DNA from: an uncultured Verrucomicrobiota bacterium
Lineage (GTDB): Bacteria; Verrucomicrobiota; Kiritimatiellia; RFP12; UBA1067
Length of the DNA stretch: 64,000 nt
Reading direction: 5' to 3'
Assembly: GCA_946055075.1 (NCBI GenBank)
Contig: CAMGEN010000005.1
Span: 2,098 to 66,097, forward strand
Shown here: positions 18,276 to 54,140 of the stretch, one piece after another
Numbering within the stretch: the first letter of the stretch is position 1
Layout of the letters: the number at the start of each line of letters is the position of its first letter
Notes under the pieces: generated by a model
The model's database searches: none
Told to the model about the DNA's origin: nothing
Seen by the model: only the letters and a program-made list of their open reading frames with translations
Translations under genes and position numbers: made by a program

Positions 18276-18280
18276 CCTCA

Positions 18281-18309
18281 TTCTCCAACTCCAACTTTTT
18301 CTCCAACTT
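18281..18309 (+). repeat. single-arm family-B element (CTCCAAC-TCCAAC-N5-CTCCAAC) in the pta leader
   Basis: CTCCAAC 18283-89, TCCAAC 18290-95, TTTTT, CTCCAAC 18301-07. It ends 6 nt before ATG-18314. Confidence 0.75.
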
Positions 18310-18313
18310 AGAA

Positions 18314-28850: not shown

Positions 28851-28870
28851 CCTACACATAAAACCTACAC
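28851..28870 (+). repeat. direct repeat CCTACAC-N6-CCTACAC in the rho leader
   Basis: Copies at 28851-57 and 28864-70 in a G-poor stretch ending at ATG-28881. Confidence 0.55.
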
Positions 28871-28880
28871 CTGATCTATT

Positions 28881-30416: not shown

Positions 30417-33376
30417 TGGATATTGTCATCAAGAATGCCAAGGTTCACAATCTCCGCGGAATCGATGTGACGATTCCGCGGAATTCCTTGACGGTCATTA
30501 CCGGGCTTTCCGGTTCCGGTAAATCTTCCCTCGCCTTTGACACCCTTTATGCCGAAGGACAACGCCGCTACGTCGAGTCGCTCTCGGCTTATGCGCGGCA
30601 GTTCCTAGATCGCATGGAGAAGCCAGATGTCGAGCGCATTGACGGACTCTCTCCTGCGATCTCTATTGAACAGCACACGACCTCGGGTAATCCCCGTTCC
30701 ATTGTCGCGACCGTTACCGAGATCCATGATTACCTCCGTATCCTGTACGGATCGATCGCCACGGCCCATTGTCCGCATTGCGGCAAGCCCGTCACTAAGC
30801 AGTCCGCCGAGCAGATCGTGGATTCCATTCTCAATCTTAAACCGCAGGCTTCAGCTTCGGGGCGCAAGATCATCCTTCTTGCTCCAGTGGTGAAGGGCAA
30901 GAAGGGCGCGCAAATCGATGTCTTCGCCGCGCTTAAGCGCAACGGCTTCGCCCGCGTGCGCGTTGACGGCGAGATGTATTTGCTTGATGAGGTTCCGGAA
31001 CTCGACAAAAAGAAGGCCCATAATATTGATGTCGTCATCGACAGGTTGGTTTTGCCGTGTGCGGAACTTTCCGACTCTTGCTCAACGTCTCAAATTCCCA
31101 ATTCCTTTCGCACCCGTCTTACCGATTCCGTTGAACTCGCGCTCAAGACTGGCAAAGGCATCCTCAAGGTCGAAGAACTCGGATCCGCTCCCGAATCCCG
31201 AACCGCGAACCACGAACCACGAACCACCACCTACTCCGAACTCAACGCCTGCGTCGATTGCGGACTCTCCTTTGACGAACTCAAGCCCCGTAGCTTCTCC
31301 TTCAATTCGCCGTTTGGAGCCTGTCCGAAATGTTCTGGCCTCGGCCAGCTCTACTTTTTCGACGAGGACCTTATCGTTCCCGACAAGACGCTGCCGCTGG
31401 AGGAATGCATCCATCCGTGGCGCCGTCTTGGGGGACAGATGGCGATACTTTATCATAAGGAGCTTCTCGTCCACATTGCGAAACAGTACAAGGTGAAGCT
31501 CTCGACTCCGTACCAGAAGCTGCCCGCGGCATTTCGTAAAGGACTTATGCACGGCTTTAAGGACGACCTCGTCCTTCCCTGGCGCCGAAATGACAAGCCG
31601 TTTGAGGGTGTCATCGAGAATCTTCAGCGCAAGATGGAGGAGGCGCCGGATGACGAGGTCCGCGCGAAATATGCCGCCTACCAGAACTTCAAGACCTGCC
31701 CTGATTGCGGCGGTTCGCGACTAAATGAATTCTCTCGCGTAGCTGAAATCGCCGGCCGGACCATCGTCGACGTGATGGCGATGCCCATCGCCGACTGCCT
31801 CGCCTTCTTCAAGAAGTTAAGAAGTAAGAGTGAAGAGTCAAGAGTTGTGGAGGATTCTCTAAATGACGATTCCACAACTCTTCACTCTTCACTCTTAACT
31901 CTTAACTCCAACCGTCTTGCCGGGCTGCGCGACATCCTCGCGGAAATCGTCAAACGGCTGCAGTTCCTGCTCGACGTCGGCCTCGACTACCTCACGCTCG
32001 ATCGCGCGTCTTCGACCCTCTCCGGCGGCGAGATGCAGCGCATCCGTCTCGCGACGCAGATCGGTTCGGGGCTTACCGGCGTCCTCTATGTCCTCGATGA
32101 GCCGACGATCGGACTCCATCCTCGCGACAACGAGCGTCTCATCAATACGCTCAAGAGTCTGCGAGACCGCGGGAACACCGTGGTCATCGTCGAGCATGAC
32201 GAGGAGATGATGCGCGCCGCTGACTACATCGTCGACCTCGGTCCCGGTGCGGGACGCGAAGGCGGCAAGGTGATGTATCAAGGCGACTTCGCGGGGCTTC
32301 TCAAGGCGAACTCATTGACGGCCGACTATCTGACCGGACGCAAGAAAGTAAGAGGTAAGAGTGAAGAAGTAAGAGTTGCGGAAAGTTCTTCTTTGAAGAA
32401 GATTAAAAAAACCACAACTCTTCACTCTTCACTCTTACCTCTTAACTGCCTTACCATCTCCCGCGCGACAGCGCACAATCTGCGTAATCTCACCGCGCAC
32501 GTCCCGATCGGTTCGCTGACCGTCGTCACCGGTGTCTCTGGATCCGGCAAGTCTTCGCTCGTCTACGACACGTTGAAGCCCCGGATGATCGCGAAGATGG
32601 ACGAGCATTTCGATAAGATGATTGAAATCGACCAGTCGCCCATCGGGAGGACGCCGCGATCGAATCCCGCGACCTACGTCGGATTCTACTCCGATATCCG
32701 CGATCTCTTCTCGAAGACCGAGGCGGCGAAGGCGCGCGGCTATACGCCCGGACGCTTCTCGTTCAACGTGAAGGGCGGACGGTGCGAGGTGTGCGGCGGC
32801 GACGGGGTGCAGAAGCTCGAGATGAGCTTCCTCCCCGATGTCTATGTCACCTGTGAACAGTGCGGCGGCAAGCGCTTTAACGCGGAGACACTCGAGGTCG
32901 CCTACGGCGGCAAGAACATCTCGGAGATCCTCGAGATGACCGTCGCCGAAGGCTGCGAGTTCTTCGCGAAGATCCCGTCCGTCTACAAGAAGCTCAAGAC
33001 GCTTCTTGATGTCGGACTCGGCTACATCGCCCTCGGTCAGTCCTCTACAACTCTCTCCGGCGGCGAGGCCCAGCGCATCAAGCTCGCGACTGAACTCTGC
33101 CGACGGTCTACCGGCAAGACCCTGTATCTGCTGGACGAGCCGACGACCGGACTCCACTTCGACGATGTCGCGAAACTGATGAAGCTTCTCACGCGGCTCC
33201 GCGATCAGGGCAACACCATACTGATCATTGAGCATAATCTTGACGTGATCCGAATGGCCGACTGGATTATCGATCTCGGACCCGGTGGCGGAGATAAAGG
33301 CGGACGGCTGGTCTTTGAGGGGACAGTCCCCAATCTCAAGAAGTGCAAGGACTCCCTTACGGCCAAGTTCCTATGA
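30416..33376 (+). CDS. uvrA: excinuclease ABC subunit A, carrying three in-frame repeat-element insertions
   Basis: 986 aa. Two ABC modules ([52 protein letters not shown]) and zinc-finger cysteines. TAATG overlap with the rho stop. Confidence 0.97.
31192..31226 (+). repeat. tandem heptamer run (CGAAYCN x5; family C) in frame inside uvrA
   Basis: CGAATCC CGAACCG CGAACCA CGAACCA CGAACCA encodes part of [15 protein letters not shown], between conserved UvrA blocks. Confidence 0.75.
31816..31906 (+). repeat. in-frame imperfect palindromic element (family A; 5 heptamers per arm) inside uvrA
   Basis: Left arm GTTAAGA|AGTAAGA|GTGAAGA|GTCAAGA|GTTGTGG (31816-31850), 21-nt loop, right arm CCACAAC|TCTTCAC|TCTTCAC|TCTTAAC|TCTTAAC (31872-31906). 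The arms are complementary at 32/35 positions. Confidence 0.85.
32347..32446 (+). repeat. second in-frame imperfect palindromic element (family A) inside uvrA
   Basis: Left arm AGTAAGA|GGTAAGA|GTGAAGA|AGTAAGA|GTTGCGG (32347-32381), 30-nt loop, right arm CCACAAC|TCTTCAC|TCTTCAC|TCTTACC|TCTTAAC (32412-32446). Same orientation and reading frame as the first copy. Confidence 0.85.
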
Positions 33377-34122: not shown

Positions 34123-35130
34123 ATGAACGTAGCCGAGAAAGCCCGTTTCGCGCGCGTGGGCAAGACCTTCAACGCGAAGAAGTACATCAAGGAAGAAATC
34201 GAAGCGATCCGTCAGCAGGTTGGTGACAAGAAGGTGCTTCTCGCGCTTTCCGGCGGCGTCGACAGCTCCGTCTGCGCCGCGCTTCTCTATAAGGCGATCG
34301 GCAAGCAGCTCGTCTGCGTCTTCGTCGACCACGGTTGCATGCGTCTCAATGAAGGCAAGATGATTAAGAAGGTCTTCAAGGGACAGTTCGGTGTCAATCT
34401 CATTGCCCTTGATTGCGAGAAGCGCTTCCTCGACAAGGCCAAGGGTGTCACCGATCCCGAGACTAAGCGGAAGATCATTGGCGGCGAGTTTATCAAGGTT
34501 TTCGCCGATACCGCGCGCGACCTTCAGAAGAAGTACGGCAATATCGACTTCCTCGGTCAGGGCACGATCTATCCCGATATCATCGAGTCCGGCGTCGGCG
34601 GACACAAGGCCGTCAAGGCCCACCACAATGTCGGAGGTCTCCCGAAGGACATCATCTTCAAGGGCCTCGTCGAACCCGTCAAGTACCTCTACAAGGACGA
34701 GGTCCGCAAGGTCGGCAAGCTCCTCGGCCTCCCCGAGGAGATGGTCATGCGCCAGCCGTTCCCAGGCCCGGGTCTCGCGGTCCGCTGTCTCGGCGAGCTC
34801 ACCAAGGAGAAGCTCGACATCCTTCGTGCCGCTGACTTCATCTTCCGTGACGAGATGCATAAGGCCGGGCTTGACAAGAAGGCCCAGCAGTTCTTCGCGA
34901 TCATGACGAACGTTAAGTCCGTCGGCGTCAAGAACGGCGCCCGCACCTACGGCTACGTGATCGGTATCCGTGCGATCACGACCCAGCAGTTCGTCAAGGC
35001 AGGAATTGTTGAGCTTCCGTTCAAGTTTGTTACCATGGTCGCCGAGAAGATCGCGACTAAGGTGAAAGGCGCGAATCGTGTCGTCTGGGACATCACCCCA
35101 AAGCCGCCGGCCACGATCGAGTGGGAATAA
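34123..35130 (+). CDS. guaA: GMP synthase, ATP-pyrophosphatase/dimerisation part only (no glutamine amidotransferase domain)
   Basis: 335 aa. N-type PP-loop LALSGGVDSSV, VFVDHGCMR, GQGTIYPDIIES, HHNVGGLP and C-terminal PPATIEWE are all GuaA C-terminal-half hallmarks. The ORF starts right at the PPase domain. Confidence 0.88.
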   Translation: MNVAEKARFARVGKTFNAKKYIKEEIEAIRQQVGDKKVLLALSGGVDSSVCAALLYKAIGKQLVCVFVDHGCMRLNEGKMIKKVFKGQFGVNLIALDCEKRFLDKAKGVTDPETKRKIIGGEFIKVFADTARDLQKKYGNIDFLGQGTIYPDIIESGVGGHKAVKAHHNVGGLPKDIIFKGLVEPVKYLYKDEVRKVGKLLGLPEEMVMRQPFPGPGLAVRCLGELTKEKLDILRAADFIFRDEMHKAGLDKKAQQFFAIMTNVKSVGVKNGARTYGYVIGIRAITTQQFVKAGIVELPFKFVTMVAEKIATKVKGANRVVWDITPKPPATIEWE

Positions 35131-35159: not shown

Positions 35160-35187
35160 GTGAAGAATGAGAAGCGAAGAGTCGTAG
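35160..35187 (+). repeat. single purine-rich (left-arm type, family A) element at the argC 5' end
   Basis: GTGAAGA|ATGAGAA|GCGAAGA|GTCGTAG lies immediately before ATG-35190. It resembles the uvrA left arms. If translated from GTG-35160 it gives KNEKRRVVE, compared with KSEESRVVE in uvrA. Confidence 0.6.
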
Positions 35188-35189
35188 AA

Positions 35190-36197
35190 ATGAAGAAAGT
35201 CTTTATTGACGGAAGTGCCGGAACTACTGGTCTGAGAATCAAGGAAAGACTTTTACAGCGAGACGACCTGGAGCTGATTACTCTTCCTGAAGAGGTCCGT
35301 AAGGATGTCAATGCGAGACGCGACGCGCTCAATTCGAGCGACGTCGCGTTTCTCTGTCTTCCTGACGCGGCCGCGATCGAAGCGGTCTCGCTCGTCGAGA
35401 ATCCGGATACCGTCGTCATCGATACCTCTACTGCGCACCGTTGTGCCGAAGGGTGGGTTTACGGCTTCCCGGAATTGACGGTCGATGGCATTCCGTACCG
35501 CTCGCGCCTCGCGAGCGCTAGGCGTATTGCGAATCCCGGTTGTCATGCGAGCGGATTCGTTGCGCTTGTTGCACCGCTCGTTCGAGCCGGAATCATTTCC
35601 GCCGACGCCGCGCTTGCGTCATTCTCTCTCACCGGCTACTCTGGCGGCGGTAAGAAGATGATCGCGGATTATGACGAGAAGTTGAAGTGTGAGGTTGAAG
35701 GCGAAGATCGGAATGCAAAGAATCCTTGCTTCAACTTCAACTCGGAACTTCAACTCTATCTCGGGGGTCGCCAGTATGCTCTCGGGCAGGTCCATAAGCA
35801 TCTGCCGGAGATGGTGAAGTACTGCGGACTTTCCCGGGCGCCGGTCTTCTCTCCGGTCGTCGTCCCGCATCTGAGCGGTATGGAAGTTACGGTGCAGCTC
35901 AATCTGTCTTCGCTCCGTACCGCTTGCGCCCTCGCGGGCGTTAAGGATGCCTATCGCGAGTTCTACTCGGATGCGAGGCTCGTCCGTTTCGTCGAGTCGC
36001 TTGATCAAGGCGGTTTCATCTCGTCCGCGGCGATGACCGGACGTGATGATATGCTAGTCTCAGCCTACGGCAACGACGAACGTATCATCCTCGTTTCGCT
36101 TTTCGACAATCTCGGCAAGGGCGCATCCGGCGCCGCGATCCAGAACATGAACCTCGCCCTTGGCGTCCCCGAAACCACCGGACTGGTATTAGGTTGA
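35190..36197 (+). CDS. argC: N-acetyl-gamma-glutamyl-phosphate reductase (short/type-2 form) with an in-frame palindromic insertion
   Basis: MKKVFIDGSAGTTGLRI N-terminus, active-site IANPGCHASG, HKHLPEM, and LGKGASGAAIQNMNL near the C-terminus. An alternative GTG start at 35160 lies inside a repeat element. Confidence 0.88.
   Translation: MKKVFIDGSAGTTGLRIKERLLQRDDLELITLPEEVRKDVNARRDALNSSDVAFLCLPDAAAIEAVSLVENPDTVVIDTSTAHRCAEGWVYGFPELTVDGIPYRSRLASARRIANPGCHASGFVALVAPLVRAGIISADAALASFSLTGYSGGGKKMIADYDEKLKCEVEGEDRNAKNPCFNFNSELQLYLGGRQYALGQVHKHLPEMVKYCGLSRAPVFSPVVVPHLSGMEVTVQLNLSSLRTACALAGVKDAYREFYSDARLVRFVESLDQGGFISSAAMTGRDDMLVSAYGNDERIILVSLFDNLGKGASGAAIQNMNLALGVPETTGLVLG
35676..35756 (+). repeat. 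in-frame imperfect palindromic element (family B, CTTCAAC/GTTGAAG heptamers) inside argC
   Basis: Left arm GTTGAAG-TGTGAG-GTTGAAG-GCGAAG (35681-35706), 18-nt loop, right arm CTTCAAC-TTCAAC-TCGGAA-CTTCAAC (35729-35754). Encodes EKLKCEVEGEDRNAKNPCFNFNSELQL. Confidence 0.8.
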
Positions 36198-36246
36198 TGG
36201 TAGCTATAACATCCTTCATTCCTAATTCCACACTCCTACTTCCTAG

Positions 36247-38614: not shown

Positions 38615-38619
38615 CTTCA

Positions 38620-38644
38620 CCAACCACGAACCGCCAACCACGAA
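38620..38644 (+). repeat. direct repeat CCAACCACGAA-N3-CCAACCACGAA (family C) in the ispF leader
   Basis: Copies at 38620-38630 and 38634-38644, ending 6 nt before ATG-38651. Shares the CCACGAACC core with the uvrA heptamer run. Confidence 0.7.
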
Positions 38645-38650
38645 TATCCC

Positions 38651-50241: not shown

Positions 50242-50273
50242 TAACTCTTCACTCTTCACTCTTACTTCTTAAT
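50239..50273 (+). repeat. single right arm of family A (TAATAAC|TCTTCAC|TCTTCAC|TCTTACT|TCTTAAT) between queC and nhaC
   Basis: Near-identical to the right arms of the two uvrA palindromes. It overlaps the queC stop and ends 5 nt before ATG-50279. No complementary left arm lies nearby. Confidence 0.75.
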
Positions 50274-50278
50274 TTACC

Positions 50279-54096: not shown

Positions 54097-54103
54097 TCTT
54101 CCT

Positions 54104-54133
54104 TTCTCCAACTCCAACTAATTTCTCCAACTT
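54104..54133 (+). repeat. single-arm family-B element (CTCCAAC-TCCAAC-N6-CTCCAAC) in the arfB-like leader
   Basis: CTCCAAC 54106-12, TCCAAC 54113-18, TAATTT, CTCCAAC 54125-31. It ends 9 nt before ATG-54141. Same 7+6+N+7 layout as the pta copy and the argC right arm. Confidence 0.75.
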
Positions 54134-54140
54134 TCCACCG

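Follow-up and report, generated by a model that had tools for sequence, protein, structure and literature searches.

A palindrome that lies in frame in argC, the gene of a type-2 N-acetyl-γ-glutamyl-phosphate reductase (ArgC), is probably a gene-less, two-armed copy of a heptamer array, a miniature of the cassettes that carry PF05635 (the 23S rRNA intervening-sequence protein, S23p); it has replaced the native linker of the enzyme and would be a tolerated passenger there. The palindrome was found in a 64,000-nucleotide stretch of DNA (the window) from an uncultured Verrucomicrobiota bacterium of the Kiritimatiellia (GenBank assembly GCA_946055075.1, contig CAMGEN010000005.1, positions 2,098–66,097 of the forward strand). 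Here we show that it forms a hairpin of two inverted arms that belong to a dispersed repeat family, that arms of the same layout bracket PF05635 genes, and that the argC site is filled, empty or differently filled among near-identical relatives. On the basis of these comparisons, we propose how such elements are exchanged and retained, and weigh this reading against selection on the nucleic acid, replication slippage and adaptation of the enzyme.

An in-frame hairpin in the argC linker

The gene, its linker and the parts of the hairpin are as follows.

35190..36197, + strand: argC, type-2 N-acetyl-γ-glutamyl-phosphate reductase (TIGR01851), 335 amino acids counted from ATG-35190
35673..35762, + strand: argC linker from linker alignments, codons 162–191, DEKLKCEVEGEDRNAKNPCFNFNSELQLYL, 30 amino acids
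35680..35713, + strand: left (forward) arm, AGTTGAAG-TGTGA-GGTTGAAG-GCGAAG-ATCGGA (nhmmer arm profile, E = 6.6e-3; C5:37777-37810)
35707..35728, no strand: hairpin centre, where the inner arm ends ATCGGAAT ... ATTCC meet around a short loop (repeat search and fold)
35722..35756, − strand: right (reverse) arm, TCCTTGC-TTCAAC-TTCAACT-CGGAA-CTTCAACT (nhmmer, E = 7.8e-6; C5:37819-37853)

The argC open reading frame (ORF) matches TIGR01851 over its full length (333 bits; curated cut-off 229.85) and retains the catalytic NPGCH motif, with C118 and H119 invariant in a 48-sequence alignment. The hairpin spans 77 nt (35680–35756) and consists of two inverted arms of 27–34 nt. A first-pass annotation, made from the letters alone, had described this palindrome, and the sequence reads as described there: the arms are present, and the element is in frame, with a predicted peptide KLKCEVEGEDRNAKNPCFNFNSELQ (including the stretches KLKCEVEGEDR and NPCFNFNSELQL) between the blocks GYSGGGKKMIADY and GGRQYALGQVHKH. 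It gave the loop as 18 nt; a repeat search places the arms, of 27 nt each and 74% complementary, at 35680–35706 and 35729–35755, which leaves 22 nt for the interval. When defined by the arm profile, the right arm converges on the left with 8 nt in between. The left arm shows some decay away from the family consensus, and the inner ARYGGA/TCCRYT ends recur in other copies and in cassette arms.

The RNA of positions 35670–35765 folds as a single long hairpin of −35.7 kcal/mol (z = −4.98 against 200 dinucleotide shuffles, none of which was as stable). The raw folding energy is unremarkable, with 96-nt windows of this GC-rich 64-kb sequence averaging −26.8 kcal/mol (s.d. 6.1), and it was dropped as a test because it fails to discriminate in such a background; what stands out is the composition-corrected score, together with the repeat architecture. 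Five copies of GTTGAAG/CTTCAAC fall within 75 nt of the argC element, and 26 are observed in the window compared with 7.4 expected. Rfam at E ≤ 1 returned nothing relevant for the hairpin region and terminator prediction found none at the hairpin, and a known RNA family or a terminator was rejected as its identity. In a 30-member protein cluster at 90% identity, the full-length members listed are all 335 amino acids long, on dozens of contigs from independent assemblies, and those listed with a readable linker all carry the insert at constant length. The insert is thus not an assembly artefact.

The hairpin accounts for sequence that other type-2 enzymes lack. Kiritimatiellae relatives mostly have a linker of 9–12 residues, typically ETAATPLHS, compared with 30 in the window ArgC, in line with the earlier expectation of a short linker. 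A segment of equal length in unrelated phyla was looked for, and the type-2 ArgC linkers of Firmicutes, Synergistetes and Spirochaetes proved to be about 10 residues long, so the claim of an insertion stands. ArgC chains in the PDB align on either side of the insert and not across it, residues 161 and 194 of the window protein corresponding to residues 212 and 222 of 8afu. In an AlphaFold2 model built on 48 homologs, the mean predicted local distance difference test (pLDDT) score is 85; residues 172–186 fall below 50 and have no secondary structure, and the additional segment is modelled, at low confidence, as an unstructured stretch some 20 residues long. Of the 15 amino-acid positions that vary in the species cluster, 5 lie in the 26-residue insert. 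Because of the low pLDDT and this variation, the predicted insert peptide looks like a tolerated, disordered excursion in a surface linker.

Unrelated alleles at one codon position

Among close relatives, the same codon holds this hairpin, other hairpins or the native linker. Across 120 homologs that are 63–99% identical to the window protein, the linker position is hypervariable, with lengths from 6 to about 49 residues and peptides that read like translated palindromes. The alleles (relatives labelled L) fall into the following classes.

GTTGAAG hairpins: window, L249, L250, L254, L021
GTTGGAG hairpins: L247, with a deletion remnant of one in L252
GGTGAGG-type hairpins: L248, L089
Single GTTAGGA arm: L251
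GGGGGATCCCCC hairpins: L006, L115, L120, L169
GGGAACG tandem runs: L019, L083, L133
GTGTAAAG single arms: L009, L016, L127
GTTGGAAG hairpins: L123

On a 121-tip ArgC tree from which the linker columns were left out, the insert classes require at least 47 changes, and tips only 0.003–0.04 substitutions per site apart carry unrelated inserts. The flanks of L247 and L253, for example, are 99.1% and 97.4% identical and those of L248 and L251 98.4% and 96.2%, whereas the inserts of each pair are unalignable. The allele boundaries are sharp (GAGAAGTT| ... |TATCTC). One of these homologs, P0002 (L247, ERZ1767561 contig, gene 1247–2557), is called with 436 residues and an N-terminal Zn_ribbon_2 (PF12674) extension, the result of a gene fusion or else of a wrongly called start site.

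A filled and an empty site can be compared directly between L256, with a 90-nt GGTGAAG hairpin, and L257, with the 27-nt native linker EEARTPLHF. These genes are 97–99% identical over most of their remaining length (the first ~200 nt are more diverged), and their divergence is raised close to the junction, over about 30 nt on its left side and 20 nt on its right, which is, as read from the alignment, the signature of a short recombination patch. The hairpin allele is without the native 27 nt and, therefore, the fill replaces the native linker and is not added to it; the comparison shows a replacement, not an insertion with target-site duplication.

A dispersed family of arms

The source genome is a metagenome-assembled genome (MAG) of gut or rumen Kiritimatiellae (2.0 Mb, 107 contigs, 90% complete). 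Heptamer clusters across it yield the arm consensus AGTTGAAG-N5-AGTTGAAG-TTGAAG-AGCGGA, that is, the layout unit8-N5-unit8-unit6-AGCGGA. An nhmmer profile built from 13 full arms finds 44 arms genome-wide at E < 0.1, including both argC arms; 28 of the 44 lie inside ORF calls made with a crude in-house caller (1,515 genes, 89% coding density). The intergenic arms are mostly within about 35 nt of the start or stop of a neighbouring gene. Of the forward arm, a single frame is open and is read as ELKCEVEVEERK; on the reverse arm, no frame is closed and all three are used (SALQLQLHTST, PLFNFNSELQL and RSSTSTSHFN). Among the genes that host arms in frame are argC, tsaD, waaA, hrpB and those of a TadA/CpaF-like ATPase and an ABC ATPase. 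Of 221 genomes of the family, 9 contain the motif GTTGAAGTTGAAGANNGGA, and these belong to one genus, whereas a reversed-pattern control occurs in none.

Arms on opposite strands within 3 kb of each other form nine convergent and no divergent pairs, and five of the nine are tight hairpins; many arms at other loci of the genome are solo. Some convergent pairs enclose native segments of 64–1,498 nt, in WaaA, a methyltransferase (around motif I), HrpB, an ABC ATPase (3′ half) and TsaD. The pairs around native segments are at the following positions.

C60:6915-7048
C38:10438-10577
C6:14015-14209
C4:53710-54139
C1:89534-91086

That such pairs are single events with cargo was considered and dropped, because in WaaA homologs the two loops vary as the argC site does, independently of each other. 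In the ABC ATPase, the forward arm at C4:53710-53738 encodes KLKCEVEERM (residues 111–120) and seems to overwrite native codons with the length unchanged; a helix of the same length is presumably present at this position in LolD/MacB-type ATPases. WaaA (C60:6128-7555) has a third repeat-derived insert at residues 58–73 or so, CGHEPTTTNHEPRTTD, made of ACCACGA-type heptamers, a unit family that also occurs in a uvrA tract at window position 31192.

These copies bear on the proposal that the extra loop is an adaptive feature of ArgC, an interaction or regulatory loop of which the DNA palindrome is a by-product. The insert length is fixed within the species and the peptide KLKCEVEVE...FFNFNSELQL recurs in several species, as this would predict. 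Near-identical enzymes nevertheless carry an unrelated peptide or none, the loop is predicted to be disordered and concentrates the amino-acid variation within the species, and the same peptides appear in the unrelated TsaD, WaaA, HrpB and ABC ATPase; of the explanations that we weighed, this is the least probable.

Gene-bearing cassettes with arms of the same layout

The genome has seven PF05635 matches, and the five best-scoring genes, all of which were examined, each lie between inverted arrays of short units, as follows.

C43: GGTGCAG
C68: GTGAAGA
C1: AGGTGNC
C6: GGGAATAGG-type
C19: GTTGGAG; arms AGTTGGAG-N5-AGTTGGAGTTGGAG-ARYGGA ... TCCGCT-CTCCAACTCCAACT-N5-CTCCAACT

The C19 arms have the layout of the argC arms with one base changed in every unit, which makes this the cassette closest to the argC hairpin. 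Between sister families, one base is changed in all units of both arms and the layout is kept. Between the argC arms, there are 8–22 nt and no PF05635 ORF, whereas the ORF is present in the sister cassettes C19, C68, C43 and C1; the PF05635 four-helix-bundle gene is the only cargo seen between such arms. In the eight further genomes with the GTTGAAG family, 14 PF05635 genes were examined; nearly all lie between inverted arrays with a unit particular to each gene, and one has GGTGAAG/GGCGAAG arms. A scan of viral contigs for GTTGAAG arms gave five chance matches inside phage genes, none of them near a PF05635 gene.

The recurrent architecture also bears on an origin in situ, in which replication slippage and hairpin-templated copying built the palindrome and its likeness to other loci is convergence of simple repeats. 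The units are indeed short (6–8 nt), there is already weak pairing between the native flanks GAGAAG ... TATCTC, and tandem-only alleles exist at the site, such as GGGAACGGGGAAC in L083 and L019. Slippage is, however, hard to reconcile with arms of 30–35 nt that share a non-tandem layout, an N5 spacer and an AGCGGA end at about 44 unlinked loci, that also flank PF05635 genes, and that pair convergently in nine cases and divergently in none, nor does it fit a filled allele from which the native linker is missing. We consider this origin very unlikely.

Conservation of the GTTGAAG copy and possible selection on the nucleic acid

Four of the five GTTGAAG copies at the argC site share the left spacer TGTGA, a right spacer TCGGAA or TCTGAA and the loop CGGAATG...AATCC (L021 differs), and because these features are specific to the copy, we take the copies to be one lineage and not independent hits. 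L249 has a perfect arm consensus at the same place, whereas the window copy is slightly decayed, with GAGG for GAAG and GGCGAAG for GTTGAAG. When the six argC hairpins (the five GTTGAAG-type orthologous copies and the GTTGGAG-type L247) are aligned, the arms are nearly invariant, one row being shifted by an extra unit, and all six fold as hairpins (−27.7 to −39.9 kcal/mol). The adjacent 300 nt of argC are 71–81% identical overall between the species with GTTGAAG copies. These comparisons point to separate histories for the insert and its host gene: the hairpin allele either moved between species by recombination or was held near consensus by gene conversion or nucleotide-level selection.

Selection of this kind is central to a second explanation, in which the hairpin is a functional nucleic-acid element, either an mRNA stem (cleaved by RNase III, stabilizing the transcript or pausing translation between domains) or a DNA or RNA array bound by a repeat-reading protein such as pentameric PF05635, and the peptide is incidental. 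Consistent with this are the stable folds of all six copies, the conservation of the arms at third codon positions (quantified below), and the paired change in L247, where the left arm goes from GTTGAAG to GTTGGAG and the right arm from CTTCAAC to CTCCAAC together. Some short linker alleles are also palindromes (L100, for example, at −18 kcal/mol over 33 nt), and the five or so units per arm echo the S23p homopentamer (PMC4990558), which is a numerical coincidence only. Yet the hairpin is missing from most relatives and from all other phyla sampled, unrelated sequences interchange at the site, among them single arms without a partner (L251 and L009/L016), and the N5 spacers differ between the arms, so that the stem is imperfect. 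With solo arms common genome-wide and the Rfam and terminator searches negative, we regard a selected function of the hairpin as unlikely.

Proposed origin and points that weigh against it

We favour the reading of the argC palindrome as a miniature that replaced the native linker. Two arms of the layout given above would be joined at their inner ends with no gene between them, and the hairpin would be to the PF05635 cassettes what a miniature is to the full-length element that is its parent. Only copies that are in frame and in permissive loops would survive, selection acting as a filter and the predicted peptide being a tolerated passenger. Homologous recombination in short patches, acting across the conserved flanks, would carry alleles from one lineage to another, and spread to new loci would take a route without target-site duplication or transposase. 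The arms may stay near consensus through recent exchange, gene conversion or a repeat-reading factor. That every unit carries the one-base change and that pairs are convergent in nine cases to none hints at templated arm synthesis or an oligomeric reader of the units.

Several observations weigh against this proposal. In the nine genomes carrying the family, the surroundings of 30 GTTGAAG loci and of 19 PF05635 loci contain no GTTGAAG-armed PF05635 cassette; as these genomes are incomplete MAGs, the relation of parent to miniature rests on shared architecture and not on a matched pair. No enzyme of mobility stands out either. A PF00078 search of the 90%-complete genome found no reverse transcriptase, on which ground an origin as a retroelement or in the manner of a diversity-generating retroelement, considered because PF05635 includes Avd, was rejected. 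The single Y1-transposase (IS200-like) match, PF01797, is weak (26.9 bits), N-terminal and in a 340-residue ORF (C11:26845-27867), and no direct repeat that would mark a target-site duplication flanks the hairpins at argC, C20, C33 or C6. The share of arms inside genes depends on the crude ORF caller described above. Finally, the GTTGAAG copy is better conserved than a drifting passenger should be: it is 76–92% identical between species, third positions included, compared with 52–62% at the flanking third codon positions (p ≤ 3e-5), and its copy-specific spacers are kept as well. A pure passenger that drifts by descent would not behave in this way, and recent exchange, gene conversion or selection is needed.

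Both flanks of the C11 ORF carry a different palindrome, GATAATTTCGGTCTGACCGATTTTATC. An origin from repetitive extragenic palindromic (REP) sequences and REP-associated tyrosine transposases (RAYTs) was rejected on account of these unrelated flanks; the ORF and its palindrome may be a separate REP/RAYT-like system.

A bolder extension, which we hold to be doubtful, is that heptamer arms are the working ends of a widespread class of transposase-free elements that includes the classical rRNA intervening sequences, with pentameric PF05635 reading about five units and a recombination-like route of spread and replacement overwriting permissive loops of essential genes. If true, a pentameric reader would explain how one base changes simultaneously in all units of both arms between families, and argC codons 162–191 would be a natural allelic series for the mechanism, in which the site is empty, holds a single arm, holds a hairpin of one of six or more families or retains the remnant of a deletion, in some cases between flanks that are 99% identical.

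Sister families and leaders in the window

Arms of sister unit families occur elsewhere in the window, within uvrA and as leaders between genes.

18276..18313, − strand: solo reverse arm, GTTGGAG family, CATTCTCCAACTCCAACTTTTTCTCCAACT; fills the ackA–pta spacer and forms the pta leader
31815..31907, no strand: uvrA hairpin 1, GTGAAGA family; arms of 37 nt, 92% complementary, matching the C68 PF05635 cassette arms
32349..32444, no strand: uvrA hairpin 2, GTGAAGA family; arms of 33 nt, 88% complementary
35160..35189, + strand: purine-rich leader with 7-nt periodicity, GTGAAGA-ATGAGAA-GCGAAGA-GTCGTAGA, read from the sequence; abuts the argC ATG
50242..50275, − strand: solo reverse arm, GTGAAGA family, TAACTCTTCACTCTTCACTCTTACTTCTTA; leader before the next gene
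54097..54140, − strand: solo reverse arm, GTTGGAG family, TCCTTTCTCCAACTCCAACTAATTTCTCCAACT; directly upstream of arfB, the downstream ORF having an RF-1 domain

The first-pass annotation had likened the right argC arm to the pta and arfB leaders, and the layout is indeed the same. Those leaders are reverse arms of the sister GTTGGAG family, to which they are assigned because their unit is CTCCAAC and not CTTCAAC, a difference of one base per unit. The genes flanking the 18276–18313 arm encode Acetate_kinase and PTA_PTB domains. The separation of the argC family from that of uvrA was borne out (GTTGAAG compared with GTGAAGA units), and the uvrA hairpins and the 50242 leader match the C68 cassette, the leader being nearly identical to its downstream arm. 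The statement that at least two element families are involved was right but understated: there are at least five or six in the genome, and six unit families each give 7 to 29 double-unit matches. In-frame insertion likewise extends beyond uvrA, with GTTGAAG arms inside the ORF calls of tsaD, waaA, hrpB and the ABC ATPase.

The 35160–35189 leader resembles a solo forward arm of the GTGAAGA family that has degenerated. It supplies an in-frame upstream GTG start, which makes the argC start site ambiguous. Three intercistronic spacers (36198–36246, 38615–38650 and 28851–28880) consist of short repeats poor in G and stop a few bases short of the next start codon; their repeats are CTTCATTCCTAATTCCACACTCCTACTTCC, CACCAACCACGAACCGCCAACCACGAA and CCTACAC-N6-CCTACAC, with no Shine–Dalgarno motif. 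In this lineage, solo arms may also serve as leaders for translation. Upstream of argC, the gene at 34123–35130 encodes a stand-alone ATP-pyrophosphatase half of GMP synthase (GMP_synt_C and PP-loop) without a glutamine amidotransferase domain, and the order of this guaA half, argC, a PHP phosphatase and a GH20 hexosaminidase is kept in the relatives L248, L252 and L253.

Relation to known elements and significance

The closest analogues of the argC element are the Rickettsia palindromic elements (RPEs) in behaviour and the S23p-bearing rRNA intervening sequences (IVSs) in structure, and it is a member of neither. RPEs lie in frame in many housekeeping genes (Ogata et al. 2000/2002, summarised in PMC10969869). 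Like the elements described here, they are dispersed palindromes of several families per genome, about half of their copies are in frame in unrelated housekeeping genes, and the extra peptide fits the fold. RPEs are, however, about 150 bp long and reside in an intracellular alphaproteobacterium, whereas the Kiritimatiellae are free-living in the gut and their elements have arms of ~33 nt, hairpins of ~77 nt and units of 6–8 nt; solo arms, arms like those of PF05635 cassettes and rapid allele replacement at one site are further features of the present system. Compared by size, build and host only, the argC element would be an analogue of the RPEs and not one of them.

The IVSs of Coxiella burnetii and Leptospira 23S rRNA are about 430–450 nt long, with an S23p/PF05635 ORF, terminal inverted repeats and a stem of ~28 bp (428 nt with a 28-bp terminal stem in Coxiella); they sit in a loop of a structured, essential product, and their distribution is sporadic, with horizontal transfer suspected (PMC4990558). 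The PF05635 cassettes of our genome have the same size and plan; the literature includes IVS versions that, like the argC arms, have no ORF; and the argC arms form a similarly long stem (27–34 nt). Classical IVSs differ in lying in helix 25 or 45 of 23S rRNA, from which RNase III excises them, whereas the full cassettes here lie between protein genes and the argC hairpin is within an ORF, where it would have to be translated and not excised.

Transposable elements of the miniature inverted-repeat kind (MITEs), REP sequences and bacterial interspersed mosaic elements (BIMEs) are likewise short, non-autonomous, dispersed, bounded by terminal inverted repeats and often intergenic by gene ends. 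The argC element differs in having internally repetitive arms, and for elements of its type we found neither a target-site duplication, nor a transposase-bearing parent, nor a RAYT with the same repeats. Heptamer arrays are known from the short tandemly repeated repetitive (STRR) sequences of cyanobacteria, from Beggiatoaceae (TAACTGA; PMC4679880) and from Xanthomonas and Nostoc (GGGAATC; PMC4692102). These share tandem 7-nt units of species-specific sequence, abundance in intergenic leaders and an unexplained function; they are mainly intergenic direct repeats, in contrast to the polar arms with a conserved inner end, the convergent pairs and the positions inside ORFs seen here. The account of the Beggiatoaceae arrays (PMC4679880) makes no mention of an in-frame, within-gene, intervening or S23 context.

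What is new here is that strains with 97–99% identical flanks carry unrelated hairpins or the native linker at one site, that the fill replaces the native linker, and that the GTTGAAG copy is conserved beyond the flanking third codon positions. Inserts of this kind make protein sequences longer and more diverse, and they can lead annotation, the calling of start sites and the typing of strains astray. In-frame palindromic 'selfish' DNA is best known from Rickettsia, and the same behaviour is now seen in free-living gut Kiritimatiellae with much smaller, repetitive elements. By their architecture, these elements tie heptamer repeat arrays to the S23p-bearing intervening sequences of 23S rRNA, the origin and mobility of which have been open since about 1990 (PMC4990558). 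The argC site offers one codon-precise position in a well-understood enzyme, with filled, empty and swapped alleles between near-identical strains, and makes the movement and retention of such elements addressable by metagenomic time series, long reads and simple biochemistry.

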